Assembly (NCBI GenBank): GCA_028715785.1
Contig: JAQURC010000001.1
Span: forward strand, 140,766 to 204,765
DNA length: 64,000 nt
Source: Candidatus Omnitrophota bacterium
GTDB lineage: Bacteria; Omnitrophota; Gorgyraeia; Gygaellales; Profunditerraquicolaceae
Reading direction: 5' to 3'
Shown here piece by piece: positions 19,285-43,198 of this stretch. Within the stretch, counting starts at the first letter, position 1. Each line of letters begins with the position of its first letter. The position numbers and the translations under genes were made by a program. Below the pieces are notes generated by a model, which was not told the DNA's origin, made no database searches, and saw only the letters and a program-made list of their open reading frames with translations.

Positions 19285-19369
19285 GGAGAGGTGGCAGAGT
19301 GGTCGAATGCGCGCGCTTGGAGAGCGCGTGACTCGCAAGGGTCCCAGGGTTCGAATCCCTGCCTCTCCG
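19285..19369 (+). tRNA. tRNA-Ser(GGA), the integration target whose 3' end is repeated downstream
   Basis: Acceptor GGAGAGG/CCTCTCC, anticodon loop TTGGAGA, T-arm AGGGTTCGAATCCCT. The 3' 15–25 nt recur at 33971, 40589 and 43174. Confidence 0.75.
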
Positions 19370-22510: not shown

Positions 22511-23421
22511 AAAAAGATATCACTAATATTCAAGCTTCTATTCGGACCAGGCTTAAAAATAAAGCTAAAGAAACAAATCGTCCGTTTGCAGAAATTCTGC
22601 AATATTACGGCATGGAAAGATTCCTTTATAGGTTTAGCCGTTCAAAATACGCAGATAAATTTATCTTAAAGGGAGCGCTTTTGTTTACAGTATGGCAGGT
22701 TCCTGAAAGGCGGATAACATTAGATATTGATTTCTTAGCGCGCTATGATAACAAGGTGGCTAGTATTGAGACAGTAGTTAGAGATATCTGTCAGGTGCCT
22801 GTTGATTCTGACGGGCTTATATTCGATTCAGAGACGGTTCAAGGGCGCAAGATTAAAGAAGACGCTGATTACGAAGGAGTCCGCGTGAAATTTATCGGAT
22901 TTCTGGAGCGTTCACGTATACATATGCAAATTGATGTGGGTTTTGGCGATATCATCTATCCGAAGCCCCAAGTGATTGATTATCCTACTATTCTAAGTTT
23001 GCCAAAACCGCATTTTAAAGGATATCCTGTGGAAAGTGTAGTTAGTGAAAAATTTGAGGCTATGGTTAAGCTTGGTCTTTTAAATAGCCGGATGAAAGAC
23101 TTCTATGATATCTGGCTTATGATACGGCAGTTTAATTTTAACGGATCGGATCTTGCCGAAGCACTAAAAAGAACATTTGAGCATCGTAAAACTAATATTC
23201 CCGCAGGAAAGCCATTATTCGCGGAAGAAATCTATGACGAAAAATCTGATCGTCAAACACTCTGGAAAGCGTTTTTAAGAAAAGGTAATATTAAACACGC
23301 ATCGGAAAAGCTGGCTATAACAGCAAAAGAGATAGAAAATTTTCTTATTAAACCGCTGGATGCTATTAATAAGTCGAAGAAGTTTATAGGCGCATGGAAG
23401 GCTCCTGGACCATGGAAATAG
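22507..23421 (+). CDS. abiEii: AbiEii/AbiGii-family nucleotidyltransferase toxin (DUF1814)
   Basis: N-terminus ...IRTRLKNKAKE..RPFAEILQYYGMERFLYRFS...FILKGALLF is characteristic of the family. Confidence 0.75.
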   Translation: MKKDITNIQASIRTRLKNKAKETNRPFAEILQYYGMERFLYRFSRSKYADKFILKGALLFTVWQVPERRITLDIDFLARYDNKVASIETVVRDICQVPVDSDGLIFDSETVQGRKIKEDADYEGVRVKFIGFLERSRIHMQIDVGFGDIIYPKPQVIDYPTILSLPKPHFKGYPVESVVSEKFEAMVKLGLLNSRMKDFYDIWLMIRQFNFNGSDLAEALKRTFEHRKTNIPAGKPLFAEEIYDEKSDRQTLWKAFLRKGNIKHASEKLAITAKEIENFLIKPLDAINKSKKFIGAWKAPGPWK

Positions 23422-23615
23422 CTTTAACTTTGGAATATAATATTTAATCCAAAGAAATAAGTATGTGGCCCAAGATTTTTACGAGCATATGCAATCAAGA
23501 AGAAAAGAAACCTTCATGAGCCGTAGTTCATAGAACAAAGACAAGTGAAGGTTTTTTATTTAACAATATAATCTAATAACTATGGTTCATTTGGTAGGGT
23601 TGAGAGGAGGACGTA

Positions 23616-25019
23616 ATGGCAAAATTAACAAAACCAATAGTTAGAGAAATTATTGATGATTTCGTTCAAGAGATTGAAAGGCGTAAAACGAAAGGACCTA
23701 AACCCTCGAAGGAAGTAATCAATTTTAGAAATGAATTAAAAACGGGATTCGAAAGAGATGTATGGTTAGTCCCAGCCGAACTATTGCTTTATAGAAAGGA
23801 TAATGGAAGAATTGCTTCCGATGTGTTGAATTATGAAAAAAACTTTGGTAAGCTCGATGAAAAAACAGAAGAAGGGCAAAAAATTATCAGGAAATTTCTT
23901 GAAGATAAAGACGAAGAAAAGACAAAAGAATTAATGCAATCTGTTAAACATGAAGGACAACGAGAGCCTGCGATTATTACCTGTGACGGGTTTCTTATTA
24001 ATGGCAATAGAAGAAAGATGGTTTTAGAAAAACTACATGGGCAAGCGCATGATATTTATATGAAAGTAGTGATTCTTCCGGGAAAAGATGACCAAGGAGG
24101 GTCGCCTTCTCAACTCGAGATAGAACAAATCGAAAATAGATATCAACTTCAAAGTGATGGAAAAGCAGAGTATTATGCATTTGATCGAGCATTGTCAATT
24201 AAAAGAAAAATGGCTTTGGGGATGAGTCTTGAAGATCAATTAAAAGATGATCCTGTTTTTGCAGGATTGGATGACAAAAAATTTAAGAAGGCTGTTAGGG
24301 ACCATTATGACGAATATCTTAAACCCTTAGAATGCATAGATAGATATTTAGCATTATTAGGTAGAGAAGAATTATACGGTACTATATCAACTGGAATGGG
24401 AGATAGAGAAGGAAGATGGCAAGCTTTTTTAGATTATTATAATTTTGTTTATAAAAAACTTGAGGATGCAAAACAAAGGATGGAATTAGGGGTTGAAGAT
24501 AAAGAGGTGGGTAAAATTGAGTCTGTGGCTTTTAAAATAATACGTTTGAGAGGGATCGAAGGTATTTCTGATATGTCAAAAGTTCATCAAGTAATGAGAA
24601 AACTTGGCCATTGGCTTAAGAATAGAGATGCAAAGAAAGAATTAATGGCTCTTGCTAATATTGGTTTTGAACTGCCAAAAAATGAATGTTGTGATAAGGA
24701 TGGTAATGAGTATGAAATGGACATGATTGACAGATTATGGTGTAACAAAAACAGAAGCGAAATTATAAGAAGGGTAAAAAAAGCCAAATTTTTAAGAGAT
24801 AATGACAATGAAAGGGAAATTACAATTATACTGCTTGAAAAGGCATTGGAAATATTAAATGACGATTCTCTTGATCCCGAGACCGTTCCATTTGACAGTT
24901 ATTTAAATGCTATGAAATCGGCGAGAGACATTGGAGCGAGAGCCAAAGAAATTGAAGCAGAATTTTATCATTTACAAAAAAAGAATAACGAATTTTTAAA
25001 GAACAAAAAATCAAAATGA
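23616..25019 (+). CDS. ParB/Srx-like nuclease-domain protein
   Basis: QREPAIITCDGFLINGNRRKMVLEKL resembles the ParB N-terminal motif (hydrophobic–GERR–A). Strong ribosome-binding site GAGGAGGA. Overlaps the next gene by 4 nt. Confidence 0.5.
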   Translation: MAKLTKPIVREIIDDFVQEIERRKTKGPKPSKEVINFRNELKTGFERDVWLVPAELLLYRKDNGRIASDVLNYEKNFGKLDEKTEEGQKIIRKFLEDKDEEKTKELMQSVKHEGQREPAIITCDGFLINGNRRKMVLEKLHGQAHDIYMKVVILPGKDDQGGSPSQLEIEQIENRYQLQSDGKAEYYAFDRALSIKRKMALGMSLEDQLKDDPVFAGLDDKKFKKAVRDHYDEYLKPLECIDRYLALLGREELYGTISTGMGDREGRWQAFLDYYNFVYKKLEDAKQRMELGVEDKEVGKIESVAFKIIRLRGIEGISDMSKVHQVMRKLGHWLKNRDAKKELMALANIGFELPKNECCDKDGNEYEMDMIDRLWCNKNRSEIIRRVKKAKFLRDNDNEREITIILLEKALEILNDDSLDPETVPFDSYLNAMKSARDIGARAKEIEAEFYHLQKKNNEFLKNKKSK

Positions 25020-26926
25020 TCTATATTTCATTTAAGGAAAATGCGTTAATTATTCCTGATGTTAAACAAAATCTAAGCGCTGAGCAAATAAGCCAGCTTG
25101 TCTGGTTTGGTTTAAAACGTCATCCCGATAACAGTTCAATCTTATTTAATCAGGTATCTGAAGAAATCTTTCTTAAAATAATAGATTACTTAGAAACTGA
25201 AAAAGTTAAGTTTGCTTTATCTAATGATGTAAAAAATATCTTAGAACGAATTAGGCTTAGTGAAGATCATTTCCGTGATCGGTCAAAAATGGCACAAGAA
25301 TTTAAAGATGGTAAATTAAGAAGTGAAGAAATCAAACAATTCTGCCAATTTGTATCTAAGCTTCCTCGGAAATTTAAGGTCCATCAAATAAAAGCGGCGT
25401 GTCATTTGTATCTTTTAAAAGATAGTGCAAATTTTTCTGTTCCTGGTAGCGGAAAAACATCGGTCGTTTTAGCGGTTTATGAAAAATTGCGAGTAGAAAA
25501 GAAAGTAAATGTTTTGTTTGTAGTGGGACCTCCTTCTTGTTTTGGGCCGTGGAGAAAGGAATTTGAAGCTACGCTTGGAAGGAAGCCTAAAGTCAAAATA
25601 CTCTCTGGTATAGGGCAGAAACATAGAATGAATATTTATTGGGACTATCCGGAAAACGCCGAATTATGCTTAACAACATTTCAAACATTATTAAATGACA
25701 GTCTTGCGGTTAAGCAATTTTTTAAGAGGAAGAATATCGACATATTTTTAGTAATAGATGAAGCGCATTACATAAAACAGGTAGGGGGGAATTGGGCAAA
25801 AGCTGTCTTAGATATCTCATCACTAGCTAAATGTAAATGCGTACTTACAGGAACACCTATGCCTAGAAGTTATACTGATGTTTTTAATATGTTCGATTTC
25901 TTATATGGTAAATATTCGCCCTTTTCATTACAAGAAAAGATTAAGGTCCAATGGCTAGAAAAGAAGAAAGATGACGAAAAAATAAGAAACATGCTTGATC
26001 AAAAAATTGGCCCTTTGTTTTATAGGGTGCGAAAAAGAGACCTAGGGTTATTGCCTCAGATTTTCCACCCCGAAAGATTAATTAAAATGAATAAATATGA
26101 GGAGCTAATTTATAAAGCAATTGAAAATAAAATCCTCAACTATTCAAAAGACGCCTTTCTTAACAATATTGAAACGATTATGCAATTAAGGAAAGGTAGG
26201 ATTATACGTTTACGGCAATGTGTATCTTATGCAGGATTACTTGCGAAGCCTATCGAAGATTACCCTGAGAATTTAATAAAAGGGGAAATTAACCTAAGAA
26301 AAATTATTCTTAACTATGATAAGCTTGAAAAACCGGCTAAGCTTGAATTATTACTTGAGATGGTTAAGAAATTCAATTCAGATAAAGAAAAAGTAATTGT
26401 TTGGGTTAATTTCATTGGGACGTTGGAATTATTAAGGAAAGCATTGCTAAAATCAGGAATCATTTGCGAAAAGATTTATGGAGCAACTCCGGTTGAAAAT
26501 GAAAAATTAGAAAATGCAATTACTAGGGAAAAAATTATCGATAAATTTAAGAAACAAAATAGCGGACTCGATGTTTTATTATTAAATCCTGCGGCTTGCG
26601 CTGAATCAATTTCACTCCATCAAACATGTTTTAGGGCGATTTACTACGATTTATCGTATAATTGTGCGCAGTATCTTCAGTCATTAGATAGAATCCACCG
26701 TGTAGGAGGTTCTGAACATAAGACAGCGCATTATTATTTCCTTCAATATAAGAATACAATCGATGAAGATATAAAAAGCAATTTGGATAAGAAAGTTATA
26801 AGAATGAATAAAATCTTTGAGAAAGACTATTGTATTTATTCTCTTGATATGTTTGAAGAAGATGGGGATTTGGCCGCATATGAAAGACTTTTTGGTCAGA
26901 GGAAGCAAACAATTAGAAAGAATTAA
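25016..26926 (+). CDS. SNF2-family (DEAH) helicase
   Basis: Motif I GSGKTS, II VIDEAHYIK, III LTGTPMP, VI LQSLDRIHRVGG. Confidence 0.8.
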   Translation: MIYISFKENALIIPDVKQNLSAEQISQLVWFGLKRHPDNSSILFNQVSEEIFLKIIDYLETEKVKFALSNDVKNILERIRLSEDHFRDRSKMAQEFKDGKLRSEEIKQFCQFVSKLPRKFKVHQIKAACHLYLLKDSANFSVPGSGKTSVVLAVYEKLRVEKKVNVLFVVGPPSCFGPWRKEFEATLGRKPKVKILSGIGQKHRMNIYWDYPENAELCLTTFQTLLNDSLAVKQFFKRKNIDIFLVIDEAHYIKQVGGNWAKAVLDISSLAKCKCVLTGTPMPRSYTDVFNMFDFLYGKYSPFSLQEKIKVQWLEKKKDDEKIRNMLDQKIGPLFYRVRKRDLGLLPQIFHPERLIKMNKYEELIYKAIENKILNYSKDAFLNNIETIMQLRKGRIIRLRQCVSYAGLLAKPIEDYPENLIKGEINLRKIILNYDKLEKPAKLELLLEMVKKFNSDKEKVIVWVNFIGTLELLRKALLKSGIICEKIYGATPVENEKLENAITREKIIDKFKKQNSGLDVLLLNPAACAESISLHQTCFRAIYYDLSYNCAQYLQSLDRIHRVGGSEHKTAHYYFLQYKNTIDEDIKSNLDKKVIRMNKIFEKDYCIYSLDMFEEDGDLAAYERLFGQRKQTIRKN

Positions 26927-27869
26927 ATTTCCTCAAATAGCGATATTTCTGAATATACTGTTTGAAAATCGCTTATTAGAAGAAGAATTTATTCGAAGAA
27001 ATTTTCGTAGGCATTCTTACAACTACGAAAGTACAAAAAATTTTTTGATTGACATCGGTTTGGCTAAAATCGATAAGAAAGCTATTATTCCCTTAGAAGA
27101 TTTGGAAAATATAGATATTAGGAATGAAAAAGAAGAAGGTAAATTTAAAAAGTATATTATAACTAAGATAGTAAATTCTAACTCCTTTTACAAGGCTCTC
27201 TTGAAGAGTTTTCTCGGAGAATTTAGACAGGAAGAATCAGCATTAATTTTTACACCCAAATTGAAGCAAAGATTAGATTTAAGTGGCATTAGAAATTTTC
27301 TGATAGATTTTGGAGTAATCCGTTTTGATGAAGGGAACAAAGCTTATATAGTAGAAAAAGATTTTGAGGATTTATGTCCAGCTAAACGAAAAGCAAATGT
27401 CACCCTAGTTAATTTTTTACGCTGCAGGAGGGAAGAAGAGAGGCTAGGAAAGAGTGCAGAGCTTAAAATTTTAGAATTTGAAAGAAACAGATTGGCAAGA
27501 TTCCCTACTTTGTTAAAAAGAATTAAACGAATTTCTGATGTAAATATTTCTGCAGGATATGATATTCTTAGTTTTGAAGAAACTCAAGAAAATTTTCCTA
27601 ACAGATTTATTGAAGTCAAAGCAGTTCCTAACGAAGATTTTCATTTTTATTGGTCAAAGAATGAAATAGAAATGGCTATTAGCCAAAAGGAAAGATATTA
27701 TTTATATTTATTGCCAGTTGTCAGAAGGAACAAGTTTGATCTAGAGAAATTATTGATTATAAGTAATCCATATAAAAAAATCTTTGAAAATAAACATGAA
27801 TGGATGAGAGATATTGAAATATATAGCTTCCAAAAATCTGCTGGACCTCAACAATCCATTCTGTTATAA
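26880..27869 (+). CDS. DUF3883-like PD-(D/E)XK-fold protein
   Basis: C-terminal GYDILSFEE....RFIEVKAV (D...E-V-K) restriction-endonuclease-like core. Start uncertain: no Met for a long stretch after the helicase stop, so it may be translationally fused or coupled. Confidence 0.45.
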   Translation: MKDFLVRGSKQLERIKFPQIAIFLNILFENRLLEEEFIRRNFRRHSYNYESTKNFLIDIGLAKIDKKAIIPLEDLENIDIRNEKEEGKFKKYIITKIVNSNSFYKALLKSFLGEFRQEESALIFTPKLKQRLDLSGIRNFLIDFGVIRFDEGNKAYIVEKDFEDLCPAKRKANVTLVNFLRCRREEERLGKSAELKILEFERNRLARFPTLLKRIKRISDVNISAGYDILSFEETQENFPNRFIEVKAVPNEDFHFYWSKNEIEMAISQKERYYLYLLPVVRRNKFDLEKLLIISNPYKKIFENKHEWMRDIEIYSFQKSAGPQQSILL

Positions 27870-27879
27870 TAAGAATAAA

Positions 27880-28803
27880 ATGAAAGCACAGTTAAAGAAG
27901 AATAAACATGCTAGAATTGTAAAAAGTCCATTTGGGTATTTTGGATCTAAGCATAGAATAGCCCTACCACTTATTAAATATATACCTCCACATAATGCAT
28001 GGGTTGATGCATTCTGTGGTTCTGCAGCTGTAACTTTTGCTAAATCACCAGCCCAAATAGAAATAATTAATGATATTAATGGGGAAATTGTAAACTTTTT
28101 TCGGCAATTGAGAAGAAATGGTTCTGAGCTTTGCCGCGAGATTGCCATGACGCCTTATGCTAAGGAAGAATTGTTTTCTGCCCGCTTACATAAGAAAAAT
28201 CTTTCTTCTTTAGAACGAGCTAGGAGATTTTTAGTTTCTTCAATGATGGCTATCAATGGGATATTTGGGGAAGAAAAAGGAGGTTTCTCTTTTTCTAATT
28301 CTTATGCAAGGAATGGGAAAGAGGCAAGGGTTAGTCGATGGTATAATTTACCAGTCCGCTTAGAGGCAATCGTTGAACGATTGAGGAATATAAGGATTGA
28401 ACATAAGGATGCCAGAGAGCTGATTAAAGGTTTTCTTAAACGGCCTGCTACGCTATTATATCTTGACCCGCCATACTTTGCAGAAAGAACCCAAGGTTAT
28501 GAATTTGATCAGAATAATGAAAAATTCCATAAAGAACTTCTTAAATTAGTTTGTAAAGCTAAATGTATGGTAATGATAAGTAGCTACAATAGCGAATTAT
28601 ATGAATCCATTCTTACGAGCAAGCTTGGATGGAAACAGATAAAAATCGCAACACATACCCAGGGTTCAAATGGTAAGCGCATGACTAGAACGGAAATCTT
28701 GTGGTTGAATAAAAATTGTATTGATGCTAAGCGATCACAAATTGTCCCCGTGGTATTATCCAAGAAAGAAAAAAAGACGGGGAAGGTAAATCCTATCAAA
28801 TAA
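27880..28803 (+). CDS. Dam-family (D12 class) N6-adenine DNA methyltransferase
   Basis: SPFGYFGSKHR...AFCGSAAV (SAM motif) and LLYLDPPYF (DPPY catalytic motif). Confidence 0.8.
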   Translation: MKAQLKKNKHARIVKSPFGYFGSKHRIALPLIKYIPPHNAWVDAFCGSAAVTFAKSPAQIEIINDINGEIVNFFRQLRRNGSELCREIAMTPYAKEELFSARLHKKNLSSLERARRFLVSSMMAINGIFGEEKGGFSFSNSYARNGKEARVSRWYNLPVRLEAIVERLRNIRIEHKDARELIKGFLKRPATLLYLDPPYFAERTQGYEFDQNNEKFHKELLKLVCKAKCMVMISSYNSELYESILTSKLGWKQIKIATHTQGSNGKRMTRTEILWLNKNCIDAKRSQIVPVVLSKKEKKTGKVNPIK

Positions 28804-28809
28804 TAGGGA

Positions 28810-30309
28810 ATGCTTATAACAGCTAGTAAGCTATACGACTATTTACAATGTCCCCATAAAGTATGGAGGGATATTTATGGACCTCAAGAAGAAAAAATTG
28901 ATGAAAAGAATCCATTTGTTGAATTGCTTTGGGAAAAGGGCGCACTTCATGAAAAAGAAATAATTTCTGGAATTGGTTCATTTATTGATTTAAGCGAAGG
29001 AACTATTGAAGAAAGAATAAACAAGACATTAGCAGAGATTAAAAAGGGGACGACGTTAATTTATCAGGGTGTTATTCGTTATGAAAACCTCTTAGGCATA
29101 CCAGATTTGCTTAGAATAATGCCTACCGGTAATTATCTTCCCATTGATATTAAGTCAGGAAAAGGATTTGAGGGCCCAGATGAATCCGAAGATGAAGAGA
29201 TAATGCCCAAAAAGCATTATGCAGTACAGCTTTCTCTCTACGTTGAAATTTTATTGAACTTATCCTTTGCAAGCGAGAAAAAGGGAGCCATAATTGATAT
29301 TAGTGGCCGGGAGCTCGTTTATTTGTTAGAAAACGCCCAAGGGGTAAGGAATACGCAGACTTGGTGGGAACTCTATTTAGAAATAAAGAATAGAGTTTCA
29401 GAATTAGTTTCGAATCAAGTGCAGGATAAGCCTGCAATAGCTGGGTCGTGTAAATTATGCCCTTGGTATAATAGCTGTAAAAAATGGTGCTTAGAAAAGG
29501 AAGATTTGACCAAGATTTTCTATCTTGGAAGAAGCAATAGAGAGATTTTAAACAAGGATCTGGGTATAGAGAAAGTAAGAGAGTTGAAAACATTAAATAT
29601 TTCTGATCTTTTAGCTAAAAAGAAGAAAGACAAGACATTCCTTAAAGGATTTGGTGAGACACTTTTAAAAAAGTTTATCACTCGCGCAATAATATTAGAC
29701 GAAACAAAAAAGCCAGTTTTGCACCAACAAGTGCACTTACCAGAAGTTAAAAAAGAACTATTCTTTGATATTGAAGATGATCCAACCCAAGATTTTGTCT
29801 ATCTACATGGAATTTATTCTCGGGATGCAAAGAGTGAAGAGTATATTTATTTCTTGGCTAAAGAAAACACGCGAGATGCTGAGAAGAAAGCTTGGCAAGA
29901 ATTCTGGAATTATATTGATACTTTACATGTTAGTGACTATTCAATTTACTACTATTCTCATCATGAGAAAACAGCGTATAGAAGGTTAAGTCAGAGATAT
30001 CCTGAGATAATCGCAAAAGAAAAGTTAGATACTTTTTTCGACAATCCGAACGCAATTGATTTATACCGAGTAGTAGAAAAGCATACAGATTGGCCTCTTT
30101 CTAGCTATTCACTCAAGGATTTGGCCACTTATCTTGGTTTTAAGTGGAGAGATGAGAGTCCTTCTGGAGCATTGTCTATCCGTTGGTATAACGATTTTCT
30201 ACAAAATCACTCCGAAGAATTGCTTAAACGAATACTTGAATATAACGAAGATGATTGTCGGGCTACGATGGTTCTTAAGGATGGAATCTCGAAGTTAAAT
30301 AAGGAGTAG
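28810..30309 (+). CDS. Cas4/RecB-like PD-(D/E)XK nuclease fused to an RNaseH-like (DEDD-type) exonuclease domain (TM0106-like architecture)
   Basis: N-terminal LQCPHKVWRD, GIPDLL....PIDIKSGK nuclease core, Cys cluster CKLCPWYNSCKKWC (Fe-S type), C-terminal EYNEDDCRATMVL. Confidence 0.6.
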   Translation: MLITASKLYDYLQCPHKVWRDIYGPQEEKIDEKNPFVELLWEKGALHEKEIISGIGSFIDLSEGTIEERINKTLAEIKKGTTLIYQGVIRYENLLGIPDLLRIMPTGNYLPIDIKSGKGFEGPDESEDEEIMPKKHYAVQLSLYVEILLNLSFASEKKGAIIDISGRELVYLLENAQGVRNTQTWWELYLEIKNRVSELVSNQVQDKPAIAGSCKLCPWYNSCKKWCLEKEDLTKIFYLGRSNREILNKDLGIEKVRELKTLNISDLLAKKKKDKTFLKGFGETLLKKFITRAIILDETKKPVLHQQVHLPEVKKELFFDIEDDPTQDFVYLHGIYSRDAKSEEYIYFLAKENTRDAEKKAWQEFWNYIDTLHVSDYSIYYYSHHEKTAYRRLSQRYPEIIAKEKLDTFFDNPNAIDLYRVVEKHTDWPLSSYSLKDLATYLGFKWRDESPSGALSIRWYNDFLQNHSEELLKRILEYNEDDCRATMVLKDGISKLNKE

Positions 30310-30407
30310 CCATTTATCTTGACTTTTAGATAAAAAGGAGTATTATTTATTTAACAATTAGGTGTGTCCCGTGTTTGAAGGGGGAAGTCCCGGACGTTAA
30401 AAAAGTA

Positions 30408-30455
30408 AAACCTTCGTTGGTCAAGTTAAGACCGGCGAGGGTTTTTTGTTTTATA
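30408..30455 (+). terminator. Rho-independent terminator after the nuclease gene
   Basis: About 12-bp stem (CCTTCGTTGGTC...GACCGGCGAGGG, with G·U pairs) followed by TTTTTTGTTTT. Confidence 0.5.
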
Positions 30456-30500: not shown

Positions 30501-31976
30501 ATGACACAAGAAAAGATTAAATGTCCACAATGCGGCACACAATTTGAACTAACAGAGGTTATTTCTCGAGAAATTGAAGCAACTATAAGTCAGAAATACG
30601 AAACACAAATTAGTACTCTAAGAACAGAAGCTGAAGCGCGAGAAAAGCAACTAAAAGAACAGTTTAAATCTGAGCAACACAAGATAGCAGAACAAGCTAA
30701 AAGAGACGCTGCTGAAGCATTGAAAATCGAGCTTGAAACAATAAGATCTCTGCTATCCGAGAAGTCAAAGAAACTTGAAGCTGCCGATAAGAAAGAACTC
30801 GAATTAATAAAGCGTGAGCAATCTGTGCAAGAAAAAGAAAGATCAATGTCGCTTGATTTTGAAAATAAGCTTGCTGTTAAAGAAAAGGAAATTCGAGCTT
30901 TACTCGATAAAGAGAAGAAGGCTGCTGAAGAAAAAGTGCGTAAGCAAGCCGAACAGGCTTATTCCGTTGAGCTAAAAGACACTCAAGAGCAGCTAAAGGA
31001 TTTATCAAAACAATTAGAAGAAAGTCGACAGCAGGAACTGGCATTACGCAAAAGGCAAAGGGAGTTAGAAGATAGGGAGAAATCTCTTGAGTTGGATGCG
31101 ATGCGGAAAGTTGATGCTGAGAAGGGCAAGATTACCGAAGAAGCTAAACGTCAGTTTGAAGAGAAGCACCGGCTTAAGGATGCTGAAAAAGACAAGAAGT
31201 TGGCCGATATGACCCGCCAAATAGATGAACTTAAGCGTAAGGCAGAGCAAGGATCACAACAAGCGCAGGGTGAAATTCTTGAGCTTGATTTGGAAGGCAG
31301 ATTACACTCAAGATTCCCGATGGATGATATTGAGCCCATCCAAAAAGGGATTAAAGGCGGAGATGCTCTTGAAACTGTAAAGTCTCAATTGGGCCATGCA
31401 TGTGGGAAAATCTTGTGGGAGTCTAAGCGAACAAAGGCTTGGAGTGATTCCTGGATACAAAAGGCAAAAGACGATCAATTGGCCGCAAAAGCTGATTTAG
31501 TCGTTATTATGACAGAGATTTTGCCGAAAGGTGTTCAACAATTTGACCAAATTAATGGTGTTTGGGTAGTAGATATCTCTTCAGCGATCAACCTGGCAGT
31601 TGCGCTTAGAACAGGCATGATTCAGGTGGCCCGAGAGCGTGAGCTGCAAGCAGGCAAACAGGGTAAGATGGAGCTAGTCTATAATTATCTGACTGGTCCT
31701 GAATTTAGAAATAGAATAGAGGCTATGGTTAGTTCCTTTGTTGCTATAAAAAGCGTATTAGACGCTGAAAAAAGAGCGATGCAAAAGCTTTGGGCTAGAA
31801 GGGAAAAGCAAATTGAGCGCGTCATAGATAATATCAGTGGTATGCATGGGGATTTAGAGGGTATAGCCGGGAAGGCATTACCAGTTATAAGGGTTCTAGA
31901 GCTACCGGTGGATGGTGGTGAAGGGGAATCCGTTGAGACACAAGAATGGCTGAAAGACGATTCGTTAGAATCTTAA
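30501..31976 (+). CDS. DUF2130-like protein: N-terminal zinc ribbon, long coiled coil, C-terminal globular domain
   Basis: MTQEKIKCPQCGTQFELTEV start, followed by about 280 aa of heptad-rich E/K/Q/R sequence. Confidence 0.5.
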   Translation: MTQEKIKCPQCGTQFELTEVISREIEATISQKYETQISTLRTEAEAREKQLKEQFKSEQHKIAEQAKRDAAEALKIELETIRSLLSEKSKKLEAADKKELELIKREQSVQEKERSMSLDFENKLAVKEKEIRALLDKEKKAAEEKVRKQAEQAYSVELKDTQEQLKDLSKQLEESRQQELALRKRQRELEDREKSLELDAMRKVDAEKGKITEEAKRQFEEKHRLKDAEKDKKLADMTRQIDELKRKAEQGSQQAQGEILELDLEGRLHSRFPMDDIEPIQKGIKGGDALETVKSQLGHACGKILWESKRTKAWSDSWIQKAKDDQLAAKADLVVIMTEILPKGVQQFDQINGVWVVDISSAINLAVALRTGMIQVARERELQAGKQGKMELVYNYLTGPEFRNRIEAMVSSFVAIKSVLDAEKRAMQKLWARREKQIERVIDNISGMHGDLEGIAGKALPVIRVLELPVDGGEGESVETQEWLKDDSLES

Positions 31977-32607: not shown

Positions 32608-32790
32608 ATGATGGATAAAGAAATTCTTACGGTTGAAGATATAGCAAGCATATTGCATATTAGGCCCAATACGATACATAGCAAACGTTGGAAAGAAAGG
32701 ACTGGCTGCCCTTTAAATAAACACGGAAAAAGATTGCTGTCTCACGCTCCTGAATTTTGGAAGTGGTTTGAATCGCAGAGAAACCAATGA
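32608..32790 (+). CDS. xis: Excisionase / AlpA-family HTH DNA-binding protein
   Basis: MDKEILTVEDIASILHIRPNTIHSKRWKE matches the excisionase-family HTH. Overlaps the integrase start by 4 nt. Confidence 0.55.
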   Translation: MMDKEILTVEDIASILHIRPNTIHSKRWKERTGCPLNKHGKRLLSHAPEFWKWFESQRNQ

Positions 32791-33887
32791 AAAGATATGC
32801 TGGCGTAAAAGAAACCAAAGCAGGGAATTACCAGGTGAACTTTCGCCTAAACAAAGGCGGGAAGAGGTTCTGGGAGACTATCGAAGCCAATTCCATGCAA
32901 GAGGCTTATAACAAAAGGGCAGAGCTGATAACCCAGAGGCAAAAGGAACTACAGACTCCCGAAGCCGAGAAACTCCGTCTCACATCCGGATTCTCAGAGG
33001 TATGGAAAGGTATAGGTGACGGAATATTAGGAGAACGCAAGCCATGGAAGACTTATCTTCATTATCAAAAGGTCTTTTGGCGGATGTTTGATGATTTTAG
33101 AAATTTGGAATTTCCTTATGTGCAAAACCCAAGCCAATTGACCTTAGCATTCTTTGAGCAATATAAGAATTATTACTCTAGTGATTTAAATCGGCCAAAA
33201 GGATTAAGGGGGGAATTAATTTATGTTAAGGCAATTATGAAACGAATGTATAAGCTGGGTTTTTGCAGTGAGAAGATAATTAAAGATATAGCCGAAAACA
33301 TCAAAAAGCCAAGGCCGAATAAGAAACAATATCCTGAGATTACCAATAGCAAAATTAATGAACTATTAGCTTTTATAAAGAAGGATAAACCGGATTATTA
33401 CAGGCCAATTTACTTTATGAAGCGCACAGGCCGGAGAGTTGAAGAAACAACGCTTATTGAGAAAAGGGATGTTGTTTGGGATGGAATTAAACCCATTAAA
33501 ATCAATATACGCGCAGAAACGACTAAAACCAATGAATATGCTCCTTTGAATAAATTAGATCCAGAGCTAGAGATCCTTATTAGCCAGGCATATAAAGAGT
33601 CGTCCCGGCACAGGGCGCCTTATTTATTCCTCACTAAACGCAACAAGAAATTTAACCAGCGTAGAATTTGTGAGTATTTAAAAGAAGTCAGCGAAAAGAT
33701 TACAGGTGTAAAATTTACTTGTCACTACTTCCGGCATAGATATTGGGTTGAGTGCGGGAAAAACAATGTACCTATTATAGACGCTATGGCAATATCAGGG
33801 AACAAGGATTCAGATGTTGTGATTAATTTTTATAGCCACAGTACAAGTGAAGGTTTGGCAAAAGTGCTTGAGTTGACGAGGTTATAA
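32787..33887 (+). CDS. int: Tyrosine-type site-specific integrase
   Basis: C-terminal catalytic region with R...HYFRHRYW...Y. 366 aa. Lies immediately upstream of the att repeat at 33971. Confidence 0.85.
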   Translation: MKRYAGVKETKAGNYQVNFRLNKGGKRFWETIEANSMQEAYNKRAELITQRQKELQTPEAEKLRLTSGFSEVWKGIGDGILGERKPWKTYLHYQKVFWRMFDDFRNLEFPYVQNPSQLTLAFFEQYKNYYSSDLNRPKGLRGELIYVKAIMKRMYKLGFCSEKIIKDIAENIKKPRPNKKQYPEITNSKINELLAFIKKDKPDYYRPIYFMKRTGRRVEETTLIEKRDVVWDGIKPIKINIRAETTKTNEYAPLNKLDPELEILISQAYKESSRHRAPYLFLTKRNKKFNQRRICEYLKEVSEKITGVKFTCHYFRHRYWVECGKNNVPIIDAMAISGNKDSDVVINFYSHSTSEGLAKVLELTRL

Positions 33888-33970
33888 TGATATGATTACT
33901 GAATTAGGAGAGGTTTTTGGTGGTGTTTCTGGTGGTAAAAGGGGCTTTTTAAGATTAAATTCTAATGTAT

Positions 33971-33985
33971 CCCTGCCTCTCCGAT
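33971..33985 (+). repeat. attR-like direct repeat: 15-nt exact copy of the tRNA-Ser(GGA) 3' end
   Basis: ATCCCTGCCTCTCCG is identical to 19355-19369. It lies 84 bp after the integrase stop. Confidence 0.6.
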
Positions 33986-35797: not shown

Positions 35798-36184
35798 GTG
35801 GAAGAAAGAATCGCTGAAGAAGTCCGCATGCTGAAGGATAAATATCCAAGCCTTCAGCATGGGGAAGGCTATGCATGGGTAATGATCCCGGATTTTAATT
35901 TACCGGAAGGATATAACCGTAAAAAGACAAGACTACTTTTTTTAATTTCAGGTTCATATCCACGTACATCCCCAGATAATTTTTATGTTGATGCAGGATT
36001 GAAGTTCGATAACAACAATCTACTGACAAATTACAGTGAGGGAGCTCAGGTACCGATAGAAGGATCGTGGGGTTGTTTCTCTTGGCATCCTGAAATATGG
36101 CAGCCGGTAGCCGAAATTAAAAAAGGAGATAACCTACTTACATTTATGAAATCTGTGAACATTAGGTTACGGGAGAAGAATTGA
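35798..36184 (+). CDS. E2-like ubiquitin-conjugating-fold protein (prokaryotic E2 family)
   Basis: 128 aa. Candidate catalytic Cys in WGCFSWHPEIW. GTG start. Its stop overlaps the JAB ATG. Confidence 0.5.
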   Translation: MEERIAEEVRMLKDKYPSLQHGEGYAWVMIPDFNLPEGYNRKKTRLLFLISGSYPRTSPDNFYVDAGLKFDNNNLLTNYSEGAQVPIEGSWGCFSWHPEIWQPVAEIKKGDNLLTFMKSVNIRLREKN

Positions 36185-36732
36185 TGCGGGTAATCCTGTT
36201 TTTAACAGAACAACAATACAACCTCGTACGGTCGCATCTTTTCAAAGGAAAAAAGGAGCAGGGGTGTTTCCTGTTTGTCAACAGTATCATGGATGCCCAG
36301 TTAATTGAGCTTAAAGTAAAGGATGTCCATAAGGTAGAAGCTGGTGGCTGGAGTTATCAAAGCGGATGTCATCTAGAGCTTGAAGAAAAAGAGAAAGTGA
36401 AGGTAATGTTAAAAGCACGAGAATACGGCTGCGATTTGATTGAATGCCACTCTCATCGATTTGGCGGATTAGCCACTTTTTCCCCGAGCGATATACATGG
36501 CTTGAGTGAATTTGTCCGATACATTTGGTGGAAATTGCCGGGTAAGATATACGGTGCCGTAGTATTTACTAAGAGTGATGTTCGGGGACAGATTTGGCTG
36601 CCTAAACAGGAGAATTCCGTATTTATAAGTGAAATCAAGGTTATTGATAATAAGGGCAACTTTAAAAGATTATGCGGCGTTCCTATTAAAAAATCTTTTT
36701 TTAACATCATTAAGAGGCGGAATAATGATTGA
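36184..36732 (+). CDS. JAB/MPN (JAMM) metalloisopeptidase
   Basis: Canonical JAMM motif ECHSHRFGGLATFSPSD (HxHx7Sx2D) plus an upstream Glu. Confidence 0.8.
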   Translation: MRVILFLTEQQYNLVRSHLFKGKKEQGCFLFVNSIMDAQLIELKVKDVHKVEAGGWSYQSGCHLELEEKEKVKVMLKAREYGCDLIECHSHRFGGLATFSPSDIHGLSEFVRYIWWKLPGKIYGAVVFTKSDVRGQIWLPKQENSVFISEIKVIDNKGNFKRLCGVPIKKSFFNIIKRRNND

Positions 36733-37609
36733 ATCACGGGAGCAATTCTCTAGGCAAATTCTAGCCTTTGGTGCAGAAGGACAAGCAGCCATTATGAATA
36801 CTAAGATTGGAATTGTTGGTTTGGGTGGCATGGGGTCATGCGTTGTGCAAATGCTAAGTCATTTAGGAATCCAGGAATTTATGCTTCTTGACGATGACCG
36901 AGTTGAAAAGTCGAATTTGAATAGGCTTGTTGGCGCTACAAGAGAAGATGTCATAAATAAGACCCTCAAGGTTGAGGTGGCCCAACGAGTCATTAAATCT
37001 ATAAATCCTGAAGCCAAGATAACTTCGCTAGGGAATCTGCGTACTGCGGAAGCCATAGAAGTCCTTTCGACTTTTCCTGATGTGATTTTCGGTTGCGTAG
37101 ATAATGATAGCGCGCGTATGATCCTTACTGATCTTGCAGCAGCATATAAGAAGACATTGGTTGATTGTGCAACTGAAATAGATTTAAAAGGTGATAATGG
37201 CATAAGTTTCGGGGGCAGGGTAGTTGTCGCTCAGCCCGGGGACTTCTGTTTATGGTGCGCAAATCAGATTGATCCGCAAATAGCAAATGAGGAGCTTGAG
37301 AGCGAGCAGGAAAAATCTTTTCGTCGGCATCATGGTTATGGCTTGGGAGCGGAAGTAGTGGCTCCTGCAGTGATGTCTTTAAATGGGGTTATAGCTGGTT
37401 TGGCCGTTACAGAGTTTATTATGTTAATTACCGGCATGAGAAAGCCGGAACGTATGCTGACTTATAAGGGAACGCGAGGAATTGTTGTTGCGACTAAAGA
37501 TGTTAAGAAGCCGGGATGTTTAGTGTGCGATTCATTAATCGGTAAGGGAGATAAGGCAGGTTTAAAGAGATACTTAAGGTCAAATTTACCAAAAGATTTG
37601 CCCGAATAG
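36725..37609 (+). CDS. E1-like ThiF/MoeB-family adenylyltransferase
   Basis: Rossmann IGIVGLGGMGS, LLDDDRVEKSNLNR, two CxxC pairs (CLWC, CLVCD). Overlaps the JAB gene by 8 nt. Confidence 0.8.
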   Translation: MIESREQFSRQILAFGAEGQAAIMNTKIGIVGLGGMGSCVVQMLSHLGIQEFMLLDDDRVEKSNLNRLVGATREDVINKTLKVEVAQRVIKSINPEAKITSLGNLRTAEAIEVLSTFPDVIFGCVDNDSARMILTDLAAAYKKTLVDCATEIDLKGDNGISFGGRVVVAQPGDFCLWCANQIDPQIANEELESEQEKSFRRHHGYGLGAEVVAPAVMSLNGVIAGLAVTEFIMLITGMRKPERMLTYKGTRGIVVATKDVKKPGCLVCDSLIGKGDKAGLKRYLRSNLPKDLPE

Positions 37610-39013: not shown

Positions 39014-40471
39014 ATGAAATATACTAATAATGATGAAAAAAGATATTTTCCGAAAGAAAAGAATGAAAATAAAGACTATAGAACAGAATGGAGAAGAGAT
39101 TTTGCTCGAATAATCCATTCTTCCTCATTCCGAAGACTGCAAGGAAAAACTCAATTATTTCCTGGTAACGAAAGTGATTTTTTCAGAAACCGCCTCACCC
39201 ATTCATTAGAAGTAGCTCAAATCGCAAAATCTATAACATTAAAACTAAATAACGACCTAAGGAAGTCGAGAAAAAAATATTTCATTGAACCCGATATCGT
39301 TGAAATTGCTGGTCTTGCCCATGACATTGGACATCCTCCTTTTGGTCATTTCGGTGAAGAAGTGTTAGATAGGGGCATGGTGGATTACGGAGGATTCGAA
39401 GGCAATGCTCAAGCTCTCAGGTTATTAGCTACTGTTGAGAAAAAAACTAATCCTTCCTCGACACGTTATGGTATTCTGGATAATGGAAGAGATACTCGTG
39501 TTGGTTTAAATCTTACAGCCCGTTGCTTAGCGTCAATTATAAAATATGACCAAGAGATTCCCAGAGAAAGTACACAAAGAAATCATCTACTCGAGACCGG
39601 AATTATAAAGAAAATTTCGCCTATTAAAGGTTACTATCAAGAAGAAAAAGCCAAAGTTGATTTTATTAAAGCTGCTGTTGTTGGAAAAACAAAACTTACA
39701 AAAGGATTGAAAACAATTGAATGCCAAATAATGGATCTTGCAGATGATATTGCCTATTCGACATATGATCTTGAAGATTCATTCAAAGCGGAATTTATAA
39801 AACCCATTGATATTATGTCTGTTAATGACAATATTCTTGATGAAGTTGTGAGAGTAATAAATGAGCGTTTAAATATAAATTTGAATAAAGGTAATATTCA
39901 AGAAGTAATCTATGAAATATTTAAAGATATATTTGAGGTTCCTTACGCAATAAAAGGTATTTTGAAAAATCCGTCTAAAAAATTTCTTCAGAATCTACAT
40001 AACTATGGATTGAGAGATGCAAATGTGTCCTCAAATAGGTTTGCTCAAGACGGATATTATAGGACAGATCTTACATCTGGTCTCGTGAATAGTTTTATTC
40101 AAAGTATAGAAATTAATCATATTGATAAAGAAACCCCAGCCCTGTCAACTATAAAAATCAATCCGAAACACCTGTTGGAAATTGAAATCTTAAAAGTATT
40201 AACTTATGAATGTCAAATTCAATCTCATAAACTCAAGATTGTTGCGTATAGGTGCAAGGATATTATTGAGTTTATCTTTAATACATTGATGGCAGAGAAA
40301 GGATTTCAATTACTTCCTTCAGATTTTAAATCAATTTATGAAAAGATTGATTCAAATAAAAGACCTCGCATCATATGTGATTTTATAGCAGGGATGACCG
40401 ATAGATACGTGCTTGAATTTTATGGAAGGTTAACTTCTGAAAATCCTCAGACTATTTTTAAACCTTGTTGA
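39014..40471 (+). CDS. dGTPase-family HD-domain triphosphohydrolase
   Basis: FRRLQGKTQLFP....RLTHSLEVAQIAKS....AHDIGHPPFGH matches the dGTP triphosphohydrolase HD motif order. Confidence 0.8.
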   Translation: MKYTNNDEKRYFPKEKNENKDYRTEWRRDFARIIHSSSFRRLQGKTQLFPGNESDFFRNRLTHSLEVAQIAKSITLKLNNDLRKSRKKYFIEPDIVEIAGLAHDIGHPPFGHFGEEVLDRGMVDYGGFEGNAQALRLLATVEKKTNPSSTRYGILDNGRDTRVGLNLTARCLASIIKYDQEIPRESTQRNHLLETGIIKKISPIKGYYQEEKAKVDFIKAAVVGKTKLTKGLKTIECQIMDLADDIAYSTYDLEDSFKAEFIKPIDIMSVNDNILDEVVRVINERLNINLNKGNIQEVIYEIFKDIFEVPYAIKGILKNPSKKFLQNLHNYGLRDANVSSNRFAQDGYYRTDLTSGLVNSFIQSIEINHIDKETPALSTIKINPKHLLEIEILKVLTYECQIQSHKLKIVAYRCKDIIEFIFNTLMAEKGFQLLPSDFKSIYEKIDSNKRPRIICDFIAGMTDRYVLEFYGRLTSENPQTIFKPC

Positions 40472-40588: not shown

Positions 40589-40613
40589 CAGGGTTTATTT
40601 CCCTGCCTCTCCG
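40589..40613 (+). repeat. attR-like repeat: 25-nt imperfect copy of the tRNA-Ser(GGA) T-arm/acceptor 3' end
   Basis: CAGGGTTTATTTCCCTGCCTCTCCG versus the tRNA's CAGGGTTCGAATCCCTGCCTCTCCG. Confidence 0.65.
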
Positions 40614-40753: not shown

Positions 40754-41059
40754 ATGAAGGTGTTACAGGGCATACTATCAGAGAGTAAAGAATACTATTT
40801 AGACATTAAGAAAAAAATAGAAAAGAGGCTAGTTAACCTTCCTATTGGGAGCATTAAGGAAAGAGAGATATCCGGGAAGAGATATTATTATTTGCAGTTT
40901 CGTAAAGATAAAAAAGTTATTCAGAAGTATCTGGGAAAAAATAAGCCGGAAGAAATCATTAGGCAGATAAGAGAGCGTAATGTTTTAAGGGGGGAGTTAA
41001 AGAAGGTGAACGAGGCTTTGAAGATAGTTAAAAGATCCGAGGGTAAAAAGCGTGGTTGA
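40754..41059 (+). CDS. Small basic protein, upstream partner of the nucleotidyltransferase
   Basis: 101 aa. Overlaps the next gene by 8 nt. No firm motif. Confidence 0.35.
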   Translation: MKVLQGILSESKEYYLDIKKKIEKRLVNLPIGSIKEREISGKRYYYLQFRKDKKVIQKYLGKNKPEEIIRQIRERNVLRGELKKVNEALKIVKRSEGKKRG

Positions 41060-41738
41060 ACCGATTAGGAGAATCTTAAAGGTATTTGCCGATAACGGCC
41101 TTTTTGAAGAAGGTGTTGAGCTTATCGGCAGTTGGTGTTTTAAGTTGTACCAGGATTACCTGGGAGTAAGAAAGTTTCCCTTAAGCAGCCTCGATGTTGA
41201 TTTCTTGATTCCCGTTCCTTTCCATGGCAAAAAGCATTTGGGCTTTATAGAACAATTAGAGGATTTAGGGTTTGAGGCGGATTTTAAACGAGACGGTTCA
41301 TTATTTTTATGGAATGCGGATTTAAAAATAGAGTTTATAACAGTTGAGAAAAGCGGAGGGACTGACAAGGCGATAAGAATTAAGAAACTCGGTATCGATG
41401 CTATTCCTCTAAGGCGCGTTGGGTTTCTTTTGGATGGATCGGTAAGCATAACGGATGCAGGCCTAAGAATAAAAGTTCCTTCGCCGGTTCGTTTTTGTCT
41501 TCATAAACTGATTATTGCGCCACTAAGAAAGAAGCCGGATAAGAACTTAAAAGACTTACAACAGGCTATTTATACGTCTACAATCGTAGACAAGAGAGAA
41601 ATGTGGCAAATGTTCCTTTCTTTACCTAAGAAATGGCAGCAAACTGTTTTGAGGTCGATAGATAAGGCTGAAGGAGAGTTACCATTACTTAAGGAAGATA
41701 TAGATAAACTTAGGCTTACACTACAGAATGTGAAATAA
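41052..41738 (+). CDS. Nucleotidyltransferase-fold (pol-beta superfamily) protein
   Basis: GS....SSLDVDF (hG[GS] x(n) DxD) motif. Confidence 0.5.
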   Translation: MVEPIRRILKVFADNGLFEEGVELIGSWCFKLYQDYLGVRKFPLSSLDVDFLIPVPFHGKKHLGFIEQLEDLGFEADFKRDGSLFLWNADLKIEFITVEKSGGTDKAIRIKKLGIDAIPLRRVGFLLDGSVSITDAGLRIKVPSPVRFCLHKLIIAPLRKKPDKNLKDLQQAIYTSTIVDKREMWQMFLSLPKKWQQTVLRSIDKAEGELPLLKEDIDKLRLTLQNVK

Positions 41739-42059: not shown

Positions 42060-42962
42060 ATGAAAAAGATAGCTGTTTTATTATTCATAGCAATATTTGC
42101 TAGTGGGTGCGCTACATTCCCCACACAACAAGTTAAATCAATTTGGCCGCAACCATCTAGTCAGGTTAAGTGGTATTGGTCAAATTGGCAGATGCTCTCT
42201 AGCGCGGATGAAGCAATTGGGGTTTTAAAAAATCTCCAACAAAATTTTGTTGAATATGCCGCTGGGCAGCCTTTTAAAACATTTGATGTGGATAAATATG
42301 GATTACGCGTAAAGTGGGAGTGGACCGAAACATCGCAGACTACTGAATATGTTCCTACCTATGGAGGGTCTTTCTTTGGTTCGACTTATGTGCCTTATTA
42401 TGGCGGGACTAATCAGACACGCACCAATACCAGTCAGTATGCAGGGGCGTTTGTAATTCCTTTTGCTGAAGTTTCCGATATATGGATGGCCCATGTTCCG
42501 GGTTTACCTCGTGAATACAAATGGCAGATTTCAGTTTCTTTGGGAGACAAGCCTATTGTTAATCTGCGTGCTCCTGATGAGCAAACAGTCCGACAACTGG
42601 GTAATGCTATTGCTACCTTAAGCCGCGAACAAGGCCGTATTCTTCCCCGCTGCCTCTTCGGGATGACAGTTTTCTCGCTAACTCCAGAACAGTCAGCAGA
42701 GCTTGTACTTAGCCCGGGGACTGGTGTTTTGGTCGTTAATGTAGATGTAGGTGGCCCGGCAGAGAAGGCGGGCGTGCTTTTTCTAGATGTAATTTTGGAA
42801 GTAGACGGCCAGCCTGTAAAAAATAATGAAGAATTAAATGCCCGGTCTTTAAATAAGAAAAGCGTAAAATTTAAAATTTTACGCCGCCAAAAGATTACCG
42901 ATGAGACAGGAAAGACCAACTTACAAAATATCGAGGTTTTTCTTTCCGTGAATGTTGGATAA
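42060..42962 (+). CDS. Lipoprotein (lipobox LFIAIFASGC) of unknown function
   Basis: Signal peptide + Cys lipobox. C-terminal region has a PDZ-like G-rich segment. Confidence 0.5.
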   Translation: MKKIAVLLFIAIFASGCATFPTQQVKSIWPQPSSQVKWYWSNWQMLSSADEAIGVLKNLQQNFVEYAAGQPFKTFDVDKYGLRVKWEWTETSQTTEYVPTYGGSFFGSTYVPYYGGTNQTRTNTSQYAGAFVIPFAEVSDIWMAHVPGLPREYKWQISVSLGDKPIVNLRAPDEQTVRQLGNAIATLSREQGRILPRCLFGMTVFSLTPEQSAELVLSPGTGVLVVNVDVGGPAEKAGVLFLDVILEVDGQPVKNNEELNARSLNKKSVKFKILRRQKITDETGKTNLQNIEVFLSVNVG

Positions 42963-43173: not shown

Positions 43174-43198
43174 GGGTTTAGTTCTCCCTGCCTCTCCG
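43174..43198 (+). repeat. attR-like repeat: imperfect copy of the tRNA-Ser(GGA) 3' end
   Basis: GGGTTTAGTTCTCCCTGCCTCTCCG. Confidence 0.65.

Follow-up and report, generated by a model that had tools for sequence, protein, structure and literature searches.

A four-gene ParB/Srx-fold, SNF2, NOV_C and methyltransferase operon from an Omnitrophota genomic island: a probable restriction-like defence system recurring across bacterial phyla

The locus described here lies in a stretch of 64,000 nucleotides from Candidatus Omnitrophota bacterium (assembly GCA_028715785.1, contig JAQURC010000001.1, positions 140,766 to 204,765), hereafter the window, whose own numbering is used unless another locus is named. 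It contains five open reading frames (ORFs), all on the + strand, that a preliminary description made from the sequence alone had proposed as one candidate defence or restriction-like system. The first encodes G1, a ParB/Srx-fold protein of 467 amino acids (23616..25019), and is followed by the genes for an SNF2-family ATPase/translocase of 636 amino acids (25016..26926), a winged-helix/NOV_C effector nuclease of 329 amino acids (26880..27869), a D12-class (Dam-like) N6-adenine DNA methyltransferase of 307 amino acids (27880..28803) and, as gene 5, a nuclease of the TM0106 family (28810..30309). Reading of the sequence confirmed the earlier description of the co-directional order and the tight junctions, and likewise of the flanking features, an AbiE pair upstream and a terminator downstream. 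The G1 and helicase genes share an ATGA overlap (25016-25019), and ATG codons at 27880 and 28810 open the methyltransferase gene and gene 5 after spacers of 10 and 6 nucleotides. The third and fourth ORFs are given with two starts each (26817/26880 and 27814/27880); for gene 3 the start is most likely 26880, since it agrees with the 329-amino-acid NCBI protein P0121, and this choice leaves a 47-nucleotide overlap with the helicase gene in a different frame. Directly upstream of the operon are AbiEi and AbiEii (PADLOC, 1e-67 and 4e-99), and the 194-nucleotide gap between abiEii and G1 holds a promoter-like site on the + strand (23413..23441; TGGAAA, a 17-nucleotide spacer and TATAAT, a consensus match only). 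An intrinsic-terminator-like hairpin on the same strand (30407..30445; 16-bp stem, then a T run) closes the transcription unit.

The domains previously assigned to the helicase, to NOV_C/DUF3883, to D12 and to PDDEXK_1/Cas4 plus RNase_H_2 were recovered with Pfam, PADLOC and NCBIfam models, whereas the ParB-like assignment holds at the structure level only, G1 having zero matches in these scans. The helicase matched SNF2-rel_dom (Pfam, 5e-20), ResIII and Helicase_C, and its motifs I (GSGKT), II (DEAH), III (TGTP) and VI (QSLDRIHRVGG) were at least 90% conserved among 68 orthologues. Its N-terminal 140 residues or so were poorly conserved and gave no nuclease match, the PLD domain of the L. plantarum relative being absent here. 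Gene 3 encodes two N-terminal winged-helix domains and a C-terminal NOV_C/DUF3883 domain of the PD-(D/E)XK type (PF13020; 2.7e-13, 50.2 bits, the gathering cut-off being 22.1), in which D228, E245, K247 and E262 are invariant; the D...ExK...E set is complete and equivalent to the residues mutated in HmaA. The methyltransferase carries a DPPY motif, matched MethyltransfD12 in Pfam (4.9e-18) and MTase_II in PADLOC (7e-47), and has DpnM as its closest solved structure (1e-9). Catalytic residues were invariant in the helicase, in the gene 3 nuclease and in G1.

Among the components of the system, G1 is conserved most strongly. Its ParB N-domain fold is supported at the structure level; the C-terminal half is all-helical, and there are three ParB-like boxes, RKDNGR (residues 60-65), GQREPAIITCDGFLINGNRRK (114-134) and IENRYQLQ (172-179). 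The invariant motifs are G130-N-R132-R133, Q115-x3-A/I and E173-N-R-Y-Q, corresponding to a GxxRxxA-type arginine box and its flanking boxes. From these residues, G1 is predicted to bind a nucleoside triphosphate (NTP), possibly cytidine triphosphate (CTP). A profile search of the PDB sequences found nothing. More than 1500 homologues, with 47-70% identity in very distant phyla, are spread over more than 15 phyla and are everywhere annotated as hypothetical; the family amounts to 1557 clusters at 50% identity. Its rarity in cultured organisms and the lack of a family model may explain how G1 escaped notice.

We scanned one genome per GTDB species (185,579 species genomes) for G1, which gave about 143 relatives, and analysed 80 loci by tblastn and all-against-all clustering of their ORFs. 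The set formed by G1, SNF2, NOV_C and a methyltransferase recurred in 80 other species genomes belonging to more than 15 phyla, including Omnitrophota, Zixibacteria, Chloroflexota, Nitrospirota, Planctomycetota, Bacteroidota, Patescibacteria, Proteobacteria, Acidobacteriota, Verrucomicrobiota, Actinomycetota and others. Four families only recurred around G1, namely SNF2, NOV_C, the D12 methyltransferase and the N6_N4 methyltransferase; the next flanking family was present in 5-7 loci, and the flanking genes were otherwise unrelated from one locus to another. The association of genes 1 to 4 is far beyond chance, and since only the SNF2, NOV_C and methyltransferase families recur with G1, we consider that the conserved unit consists of four genes. 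The earlier view of a combination of helicase, methyltransferase and nuclease is supported, and the operon is conserved, self-contained and horizontally spread.

The same neighbourhood analysis removed gene 5 from the unit, which had been described as comprising five genes: genes 1 to 4 co-occur in the 80 other genomes and gene 5 is absent from all of them. Gene 5 combines a Cas4-like PD-(D/E)XK domain with four cysteines and an RNase-H-fold domain (Pfam RNase_H_2, 6.7e-30; PDDEXK_1, 3e-5; also a Cas4 match), and along residues 3-491 it matched the NCBIfam model TIGR03491 (1.4e-75, 255.1 bits against a curated cut-off of 97.45). That all five genes, including this Cas4/RNase-H-like nuclease, form one obligate system, as first proposed, is suggested by the spacing of only 6 nucleotides after the methyltransferase gene, with no terminator between the two and a common one after gene 5. 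Other Cas4-like PDDEXK_1 genes of 221-250 amino acids, unrelated to gene 5, also occupy the same slot directly after the system in three loci (L090, 4985-5650; L091, 5002-5667; L023, 14191-14943), a further one being located at 17823-18197 in L006, and PDDEXK_1 is among the commonest neighbour families (3 of 142 neighbours). Against such an obligate association, no homologue of gene 5 was present in the 80 related loci, nor in the closest relative (L089), and gene 5 belongs to a catalogued stand-alone family, the TM0106 RecB-like nucleases (TIGR03491); the L090 gene, compared as a candidate orthologue of gene 5, proved not to be orthologous. A tblastn search of 84 loci with gene 5, gene 6 (a DUF2130 protein gene, see below) and AbiE found none of them in any related locus. 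We therefore regard an obligate five-gene system as highly improbable. Co-transcribed here but outside the conserved system, gene 5 is a locus-specific passenger or at most an accessory; for a Cas4-like nuclease, an optional accessory role is possible.

The genes for G1 and the helicase were adjacent in 80 of 81 loci. Their protein distances were correlated (r = 0.63), as expected if the two had been inherited together. In about nine of 80 loci (L017, L024, L030, L032, L038, L047, L066, L072 and L076) the SNF2 gene was broken into two or three ORFs, with a 517-amino-acid ORF inserted in L072; these split genes could be due to pseudogenisation or to assembly errors.

A methyltransferase gene was found beside this core in 73 of 81 loci, most of the remainder being cut by contig ends. 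It belonged to the D12 family in 46 loci and was replaced by an N6_N4 methyltransferase (PF01555) in 27, with at least seven changes of family on the neighbour-joining tree of G1, and its position was downstream, upstream or inverted. In the relatives from Streptococcus, Lactiplantibacillus and Priestia, a C5 methyltransferase was present instead. The retention of a methyltransferase while its family varies fits selection for a generic self-marking function, and we propose that the D12 enzyme of the window marks self DNA.

The nuclease module is swappable as well: NOV_C is present in trans, an HNH domain can be joined to G1 or a PLD domain to the helicase, and a MutH/Sau3AI-type enzyme also occurs. 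The NOV_C protein was present in 67 loci. Close family members (loci L092-L094) encode fusions of G1 with an N-terminal HNH domain of about 165 amino acids (CxxC...ICHI...NLILLCxxCH); the two loci inspected (L092, 7001-8893; L094, 6001-7863) combined the HNH-G1 gene with SNF2 and a D12 methyltransferase, and the NOV_C gene was absent. The plasmid relatives of Lactiplantibacillus and Priestia have a helicase with an N-terminal PLD nuclease domain, together with an endonuclease of the MutH/Sau3AI family and the C5 methyltransferase. Finally, in seven monophyletic Bacteroidota loci, all without NOV_C (L057, L064, L070, L071, L075, L083 and L084, at about 9200-9997 in each), a PNP_UDP_1 gene lies 3 nucleotides upstream of G1. 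This gene matched the 'PN-superfamily' effector model of the cyclic-oligonucleotide-based anti-phage signalling system (CBASS; 3e-19), and matched models of methylthioadenosine/S-adenosylhomocysteine (MTA/SAH) nucleosidases far below their cut-offs; it could be a helper of the methyltransferase rather than an effector.

A combination of methyltransferase, nickase and helicase also recalls methyl-directed DNA repair, and the operon could be seen as a repair or replication-associated housekeeping module analogous to Dam/MutH/UvrD, given that the D12 enzyme is Dam-like and that genes of the MutH/Sau3AI family and Vsr genes adjoin the core in some relatives. We consider this extremely unlikely for a module that is sporadic and horizontally transferred (about 143 matches in all the species genomes scanned), lies on islands and plasmids, has a pseudogenised helicase in several loci and interchanges its methyltransferase family.

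The operon, earlier presented as unclassified, does not stand entirely apart from known systems: its ParB-like and SNF2 core has the architecture of AbiR, and its SNF2 and NOV_C genes correspond to a split HmaA. AbiR, from the Lactococcus lactis plasmid pKR223, is composed of abiRa, abiRb and abiRc with the LlaKR2I methylase, AbiRb being ParB-like and AbiRc an SNF2 protein; it lowers the replication of phage DNA and, when the LlaKR2I methylase is missing, is toxic, a dependence described as mechanistically unresolved in a 2026 review (PMC13064643). Our comparison relied on the published description of AbiR; of 120 relatives of the ParB-like protein from Lactococcus, none bears the name AbiR. 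In both systems a ParB-fold protein is followed by an SNF2-type helicase, G1 having the fold of the middle protein (AbiRb/AbiRii), and in AbiR the function is tied to a DNA methylase. The two nevertheless differ in several respects. The sigma70-like AbiRa (AbiRi) of about 820 amino acids was absent upstream of G1 in the window and in the 80 loci, and the N-terminal restriction-endonuclease-like domain of the AbiRc (AbiRiii) helicase had no match in the window helicase. Here there is instead a separate winged-helix/NOV_C nuclease, and the methyltransferase, D12 or N6_N4, lies inside the operon and is of another family, whereas AbiR borrows its methylase from a Type II system.

Firmicute loci with the AbiR architecture were detectable sequence relatives of the system (30% identity for the G1-like protein; E 2e-60 for the Enterococcus helicase). 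The Enterococcus lactis plasmid NZ_CP078095 (L085, 4459-13167) carries an AbiR-like trio made of an 815-amino-acid sigma70-like protein with a weak MzaA/sigma70 match, a 403-amino-acid ParB-like protein and a 620-amino-acid helicase. This trio lies between a Type I restriction-modification system and a gene pair that size and sequence inspection suggest to be McrBC-like AAA ATPases, and its ParB-like protein is also encoded on more than 50 Enterococcus plasmids. In the Streptococcus phage region Javan191, the ParB-like and SNF2 genes are accompanied by a C5 cytosine methyltransferase and a NOV_C gene. On the Lactococcus lactis plasmid pIBB109_AgSa_3 (L095, 3002-11016), Type III Mod and Res are followed, with overlapping junctions, by a ParB N-domain protein and a 620-amino-acid helicase that are related to the pair of the window, which indicates that the ParB-SNF2 dyad can attach to a classical restriction-modification system. 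We regard the system as probably related to AbiR; it would represent a large branch, so far unannotated, in which the methyltransferase is built in and the nuclease is modular, distributed across environmental phyla.

The likeness to Hma concerns the SNF2 ATPase and the NOV_C/DUF3883 PD-(D/E)XK nuclease encoded beside a methyltransferase. HmaA is a single SNF2-NOV_C fusion of 1180 amino acids, whose NOV_C domain is a nickase required against T4 (PMC11232893), whereas the two parts are separate ORFs here; PADLOC matches to HmaA were weak (2.6e-7 for the helicase, 1.4e-3 for the NOV_C protein). HmaB (DUF1156 methyltransferase) and HmaC (DUF499 ATPase) were not found in the window genes or among the recurrent neighbours and, unlike the present system, Hma has no ParB-like protein. 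The 7-deazaguanine system Dpd also has SNF2-like helicases together with DpdB, a ParB-like NTPase (PMC12839542), and the PADLOC model of DpdE matched the window helicase (5e-19), but DpdA/TGT, DpdC and the preQ0 genes are absent here and modification relies on an ordinary S-adenosylmethionine-dependent methyltransferase. In Type III and Type ISP enzymes and in DISARM (defence island system associated with restriction-modification) and BREX (bacteriophage exclusion), a methyltransferase likewise marks self and an SF2 motor and a nuclease act on unmarked DNA; the present system differs by having the motor and the nuclease as separate proteins and by an extra ParB-fold component. Pfam and PADLOC detected no DUF1998 (DrmB), PLD (DrmC), PglZ, BrxC or HsdS in the operon or its flanks, and the PADLOC matches to DrmD and BrxH did not exceed the generic helicase level. 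Because their defining genes are absent, we rejected membership in DISARM, BREX, Dpd and the classical Type I and Type III systems, most of which the preliminary description had already set aside; nor is the system described in a published survey of BREX diversity. Finally, GmrSD/BrxU-type ParB(DUF262)-HNH proteins resemble the HNH-G1 fusions in coupling a ParB-fold NTPase to a nuclease, but GmrSD enzymes belong to Type IV, consist of one protein that cleaves modified DNA, and have neither methyltransferase nor helicase.

Taken with the hallmarks of a modification-dependent defence system, which the preliminary description had recognised and our results support, these comparisons make it probable that genes 1 to 4 constitute a self-contained, horizontally mobile, methylation-gated and ATP-driven restriction-like defence system. 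The methyltransferase would mark host DNA at its target motif, and G1 and the SNF2 ATPase would form a conserved sensor-motor core, loading on double-stranded DNA and translocating along it. On unmarked phage or plasmid DNA, this core would license the winged-helix/NOV_C nuclease to nick or cut, which would block replication of the invader. A physical complex of the components, activation sensitive to methylation and an anti-phage phenotype are inferred. The position of the operon on a tRNA-Ser integrase island next to AbiE, the AriA, AbiL, NucC, NsnA or MADS genes close to some related loci, and the absence of the family from 2.9 million viral contigs also speak for a defence system.

Several observations weigh against this proposal. 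The family is known here from its genes alone, and G1 is conserved unusually well for a defence gene. The grounds for relating the system to AbiR are its architecture, its fold and what a review describes, with Firmicute relatives at 28-33% identity. One locus (L022) has only G1, SNF2 and a methyltransferase, and the PNP_UDP_1 gene of Bacteroidota has its best matches, well below cut-off, among MTA/SAH nucleosidases; should it be a helper of the methyltransferase, that clade could be left without an obvious nuclease. Immediate neighbours in other genomes were heterogeneous, many of them housekeeping genes, with a few recombinases and some AriA, AbiE, AbiL, NucC, NsnA and MADS genes; with such mostly ordinary neighbours, enrichment in defence islands is modest.

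In the window, the operon lies on a mobile element. The last 14-15 bases of tRNA-Ser(gga), at 19355-19369 on the + strand, are repeated at 33969-33983, 40600-40613 and 43185-43198. The first copy, the 3' end of the tRNA gene, forms the attL core at the left border of the island, and the direct repeat at 33969..33983 (+ strand), just downstream of a tyrosine integrase gene (32787-33887), forms the attR core. These repeats and the integrase indicate that the operon is cargo of an integrated island of 14.6 kb, the first of three in tandem (19.4-34.0 kb, 34.0-40.6 kb and 40.6-43.2 kb), a recognisable integrase being present in the first only.

This setting, cargo of an island with its integrase and adjoining the AbiE toxin-antitoxin pair, raises the question of a selfish addiction module, in which the methyltransferase would be the antidote to a toxin formed by the ParB-like protein, SNF2 and the nuclease and would stabilise the island through post-segregational killing, any benefit against phages being small or nil. 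Both the toxicity of AbiR without its methylase and the fragmentation of the helicase in about nine loci, which fits a costly element, speak for it. The effect of AbiR on phage DNA replication and the defence of HmaA's NOV_C domain against T4 point the other way, and an ATP-driven translocase with a ParB-like sensor exceeds what a toxin needs. Addiction and defence are in any case not mutually exclusive in restriction-modification-like systems, and we consider pure addiction rather unlikely.

The operon could also serve a mobile element in counter-defence or establishment, as an unfused version of 'polyvalent proteins' such as DarB, which methylate incoming element DNA against host restriction. 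Phages and conjugative elements have polyvalent proteins with the same trio of ParB, adenine methyltransferase and SNF2 domains (PMC5512222); in addition, one locus has a TrwC relaxase and a TraG coupling protein next to it, the window island carries a MobC-like gene besides its integrase, and a ParB_N-methyltransferase fusion occurs nearby in L090. Yet a scan of 2.9 million viral contigs of IMG/VR found no relative of G1, and those in plasmid and phage collections were distant and partial only. The loci are mostly chromosomal with ordinary neighbours, anti-restriction offers no place for a conserved nuclease that is exchanged among NOV_C, HNH, PLD and MutH types, and AbiR, the relative studied experimentally, is a host defence. 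We thus regard a counter-defence function as very unlikely.

Other genes of this region may be mentioned here. Gene 6 (30501-31976) has a promoter-like site to itself, located behind the terminator of the operon. It encodes a DUF2130 protein (7.4e-64) whose N-terminal half is a long coiled coil and whose LmuB-like matches are weak. The second island carries, at 35798-37609, a Prok-E2_E protein (PF14462, 1.9e-11), a 183-amino-acid ORF without family and a ThiF/E1-like protein (1e-42), preceded by a helix-turn-helix gene; the group resembles a cassette for bacterial ubiquitin-like conjugation, of the type found in defence islands. At the end of the same island (39014-40471), a dGTPase-like phosphohydrolase with HD and HD_assoc domains may be a nucleotide-depleting defence gene. 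Further downstream are a 101-amino-acid ORF followed by an NTP_transf_8 nucleotidyltransferase gene (40754-41738), which may form a toxin-antitoxin-like pair, a PDZ-domain protein (42060-42962) and a patatin-like phospholipase of 558 amino acids (43242-44918).

Returning to the restriction-like defence proposed for genes 1 to 4, a more specific version can be suggested tentatively, as a possibility. The ParB-fold G1 would be an NTP (CTP)-gated clamp that loads or slides on DNA and would act as self/non-self sensor in restriction-modification systems of a new class, reading methylation together with the SNF2 motor and licensing whichever effector is encoded locally, be it a NOV_C, HNH, PLD or MutH-like nuclease or a PNP-type nucleosidase. 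If this were true, the methylase dependence of AbiR would be explained and the CTPase switch of ParB proteins would be extended from chromosome segregation to immunity.

More generally, G1 defines a large protein family strictly linked to an SNF2 motor, with a swappable methyltransferase and a swappable nuclease, and thus provides a concrete and testable restriction-like architecture built around the ParB/Srx NTPase fold. The presence of the system in Pedobacter sp. BMA (L064, with the PNP gene), in Verrucomicrobiaceae bacterium E54 (L033), in a prophage region of Streptococcus equi (Javan191, L086) and on Firmicute plasmids makes experiments feasible in cultured carriers. It brings into one frame AbiR, Hma and the unannotated ParB-SNF2 pairs of Enterococcus, Staphylococcus, Bacillus and Streptococcus, and may offer an explanation for the need of AbiR for its methylase.

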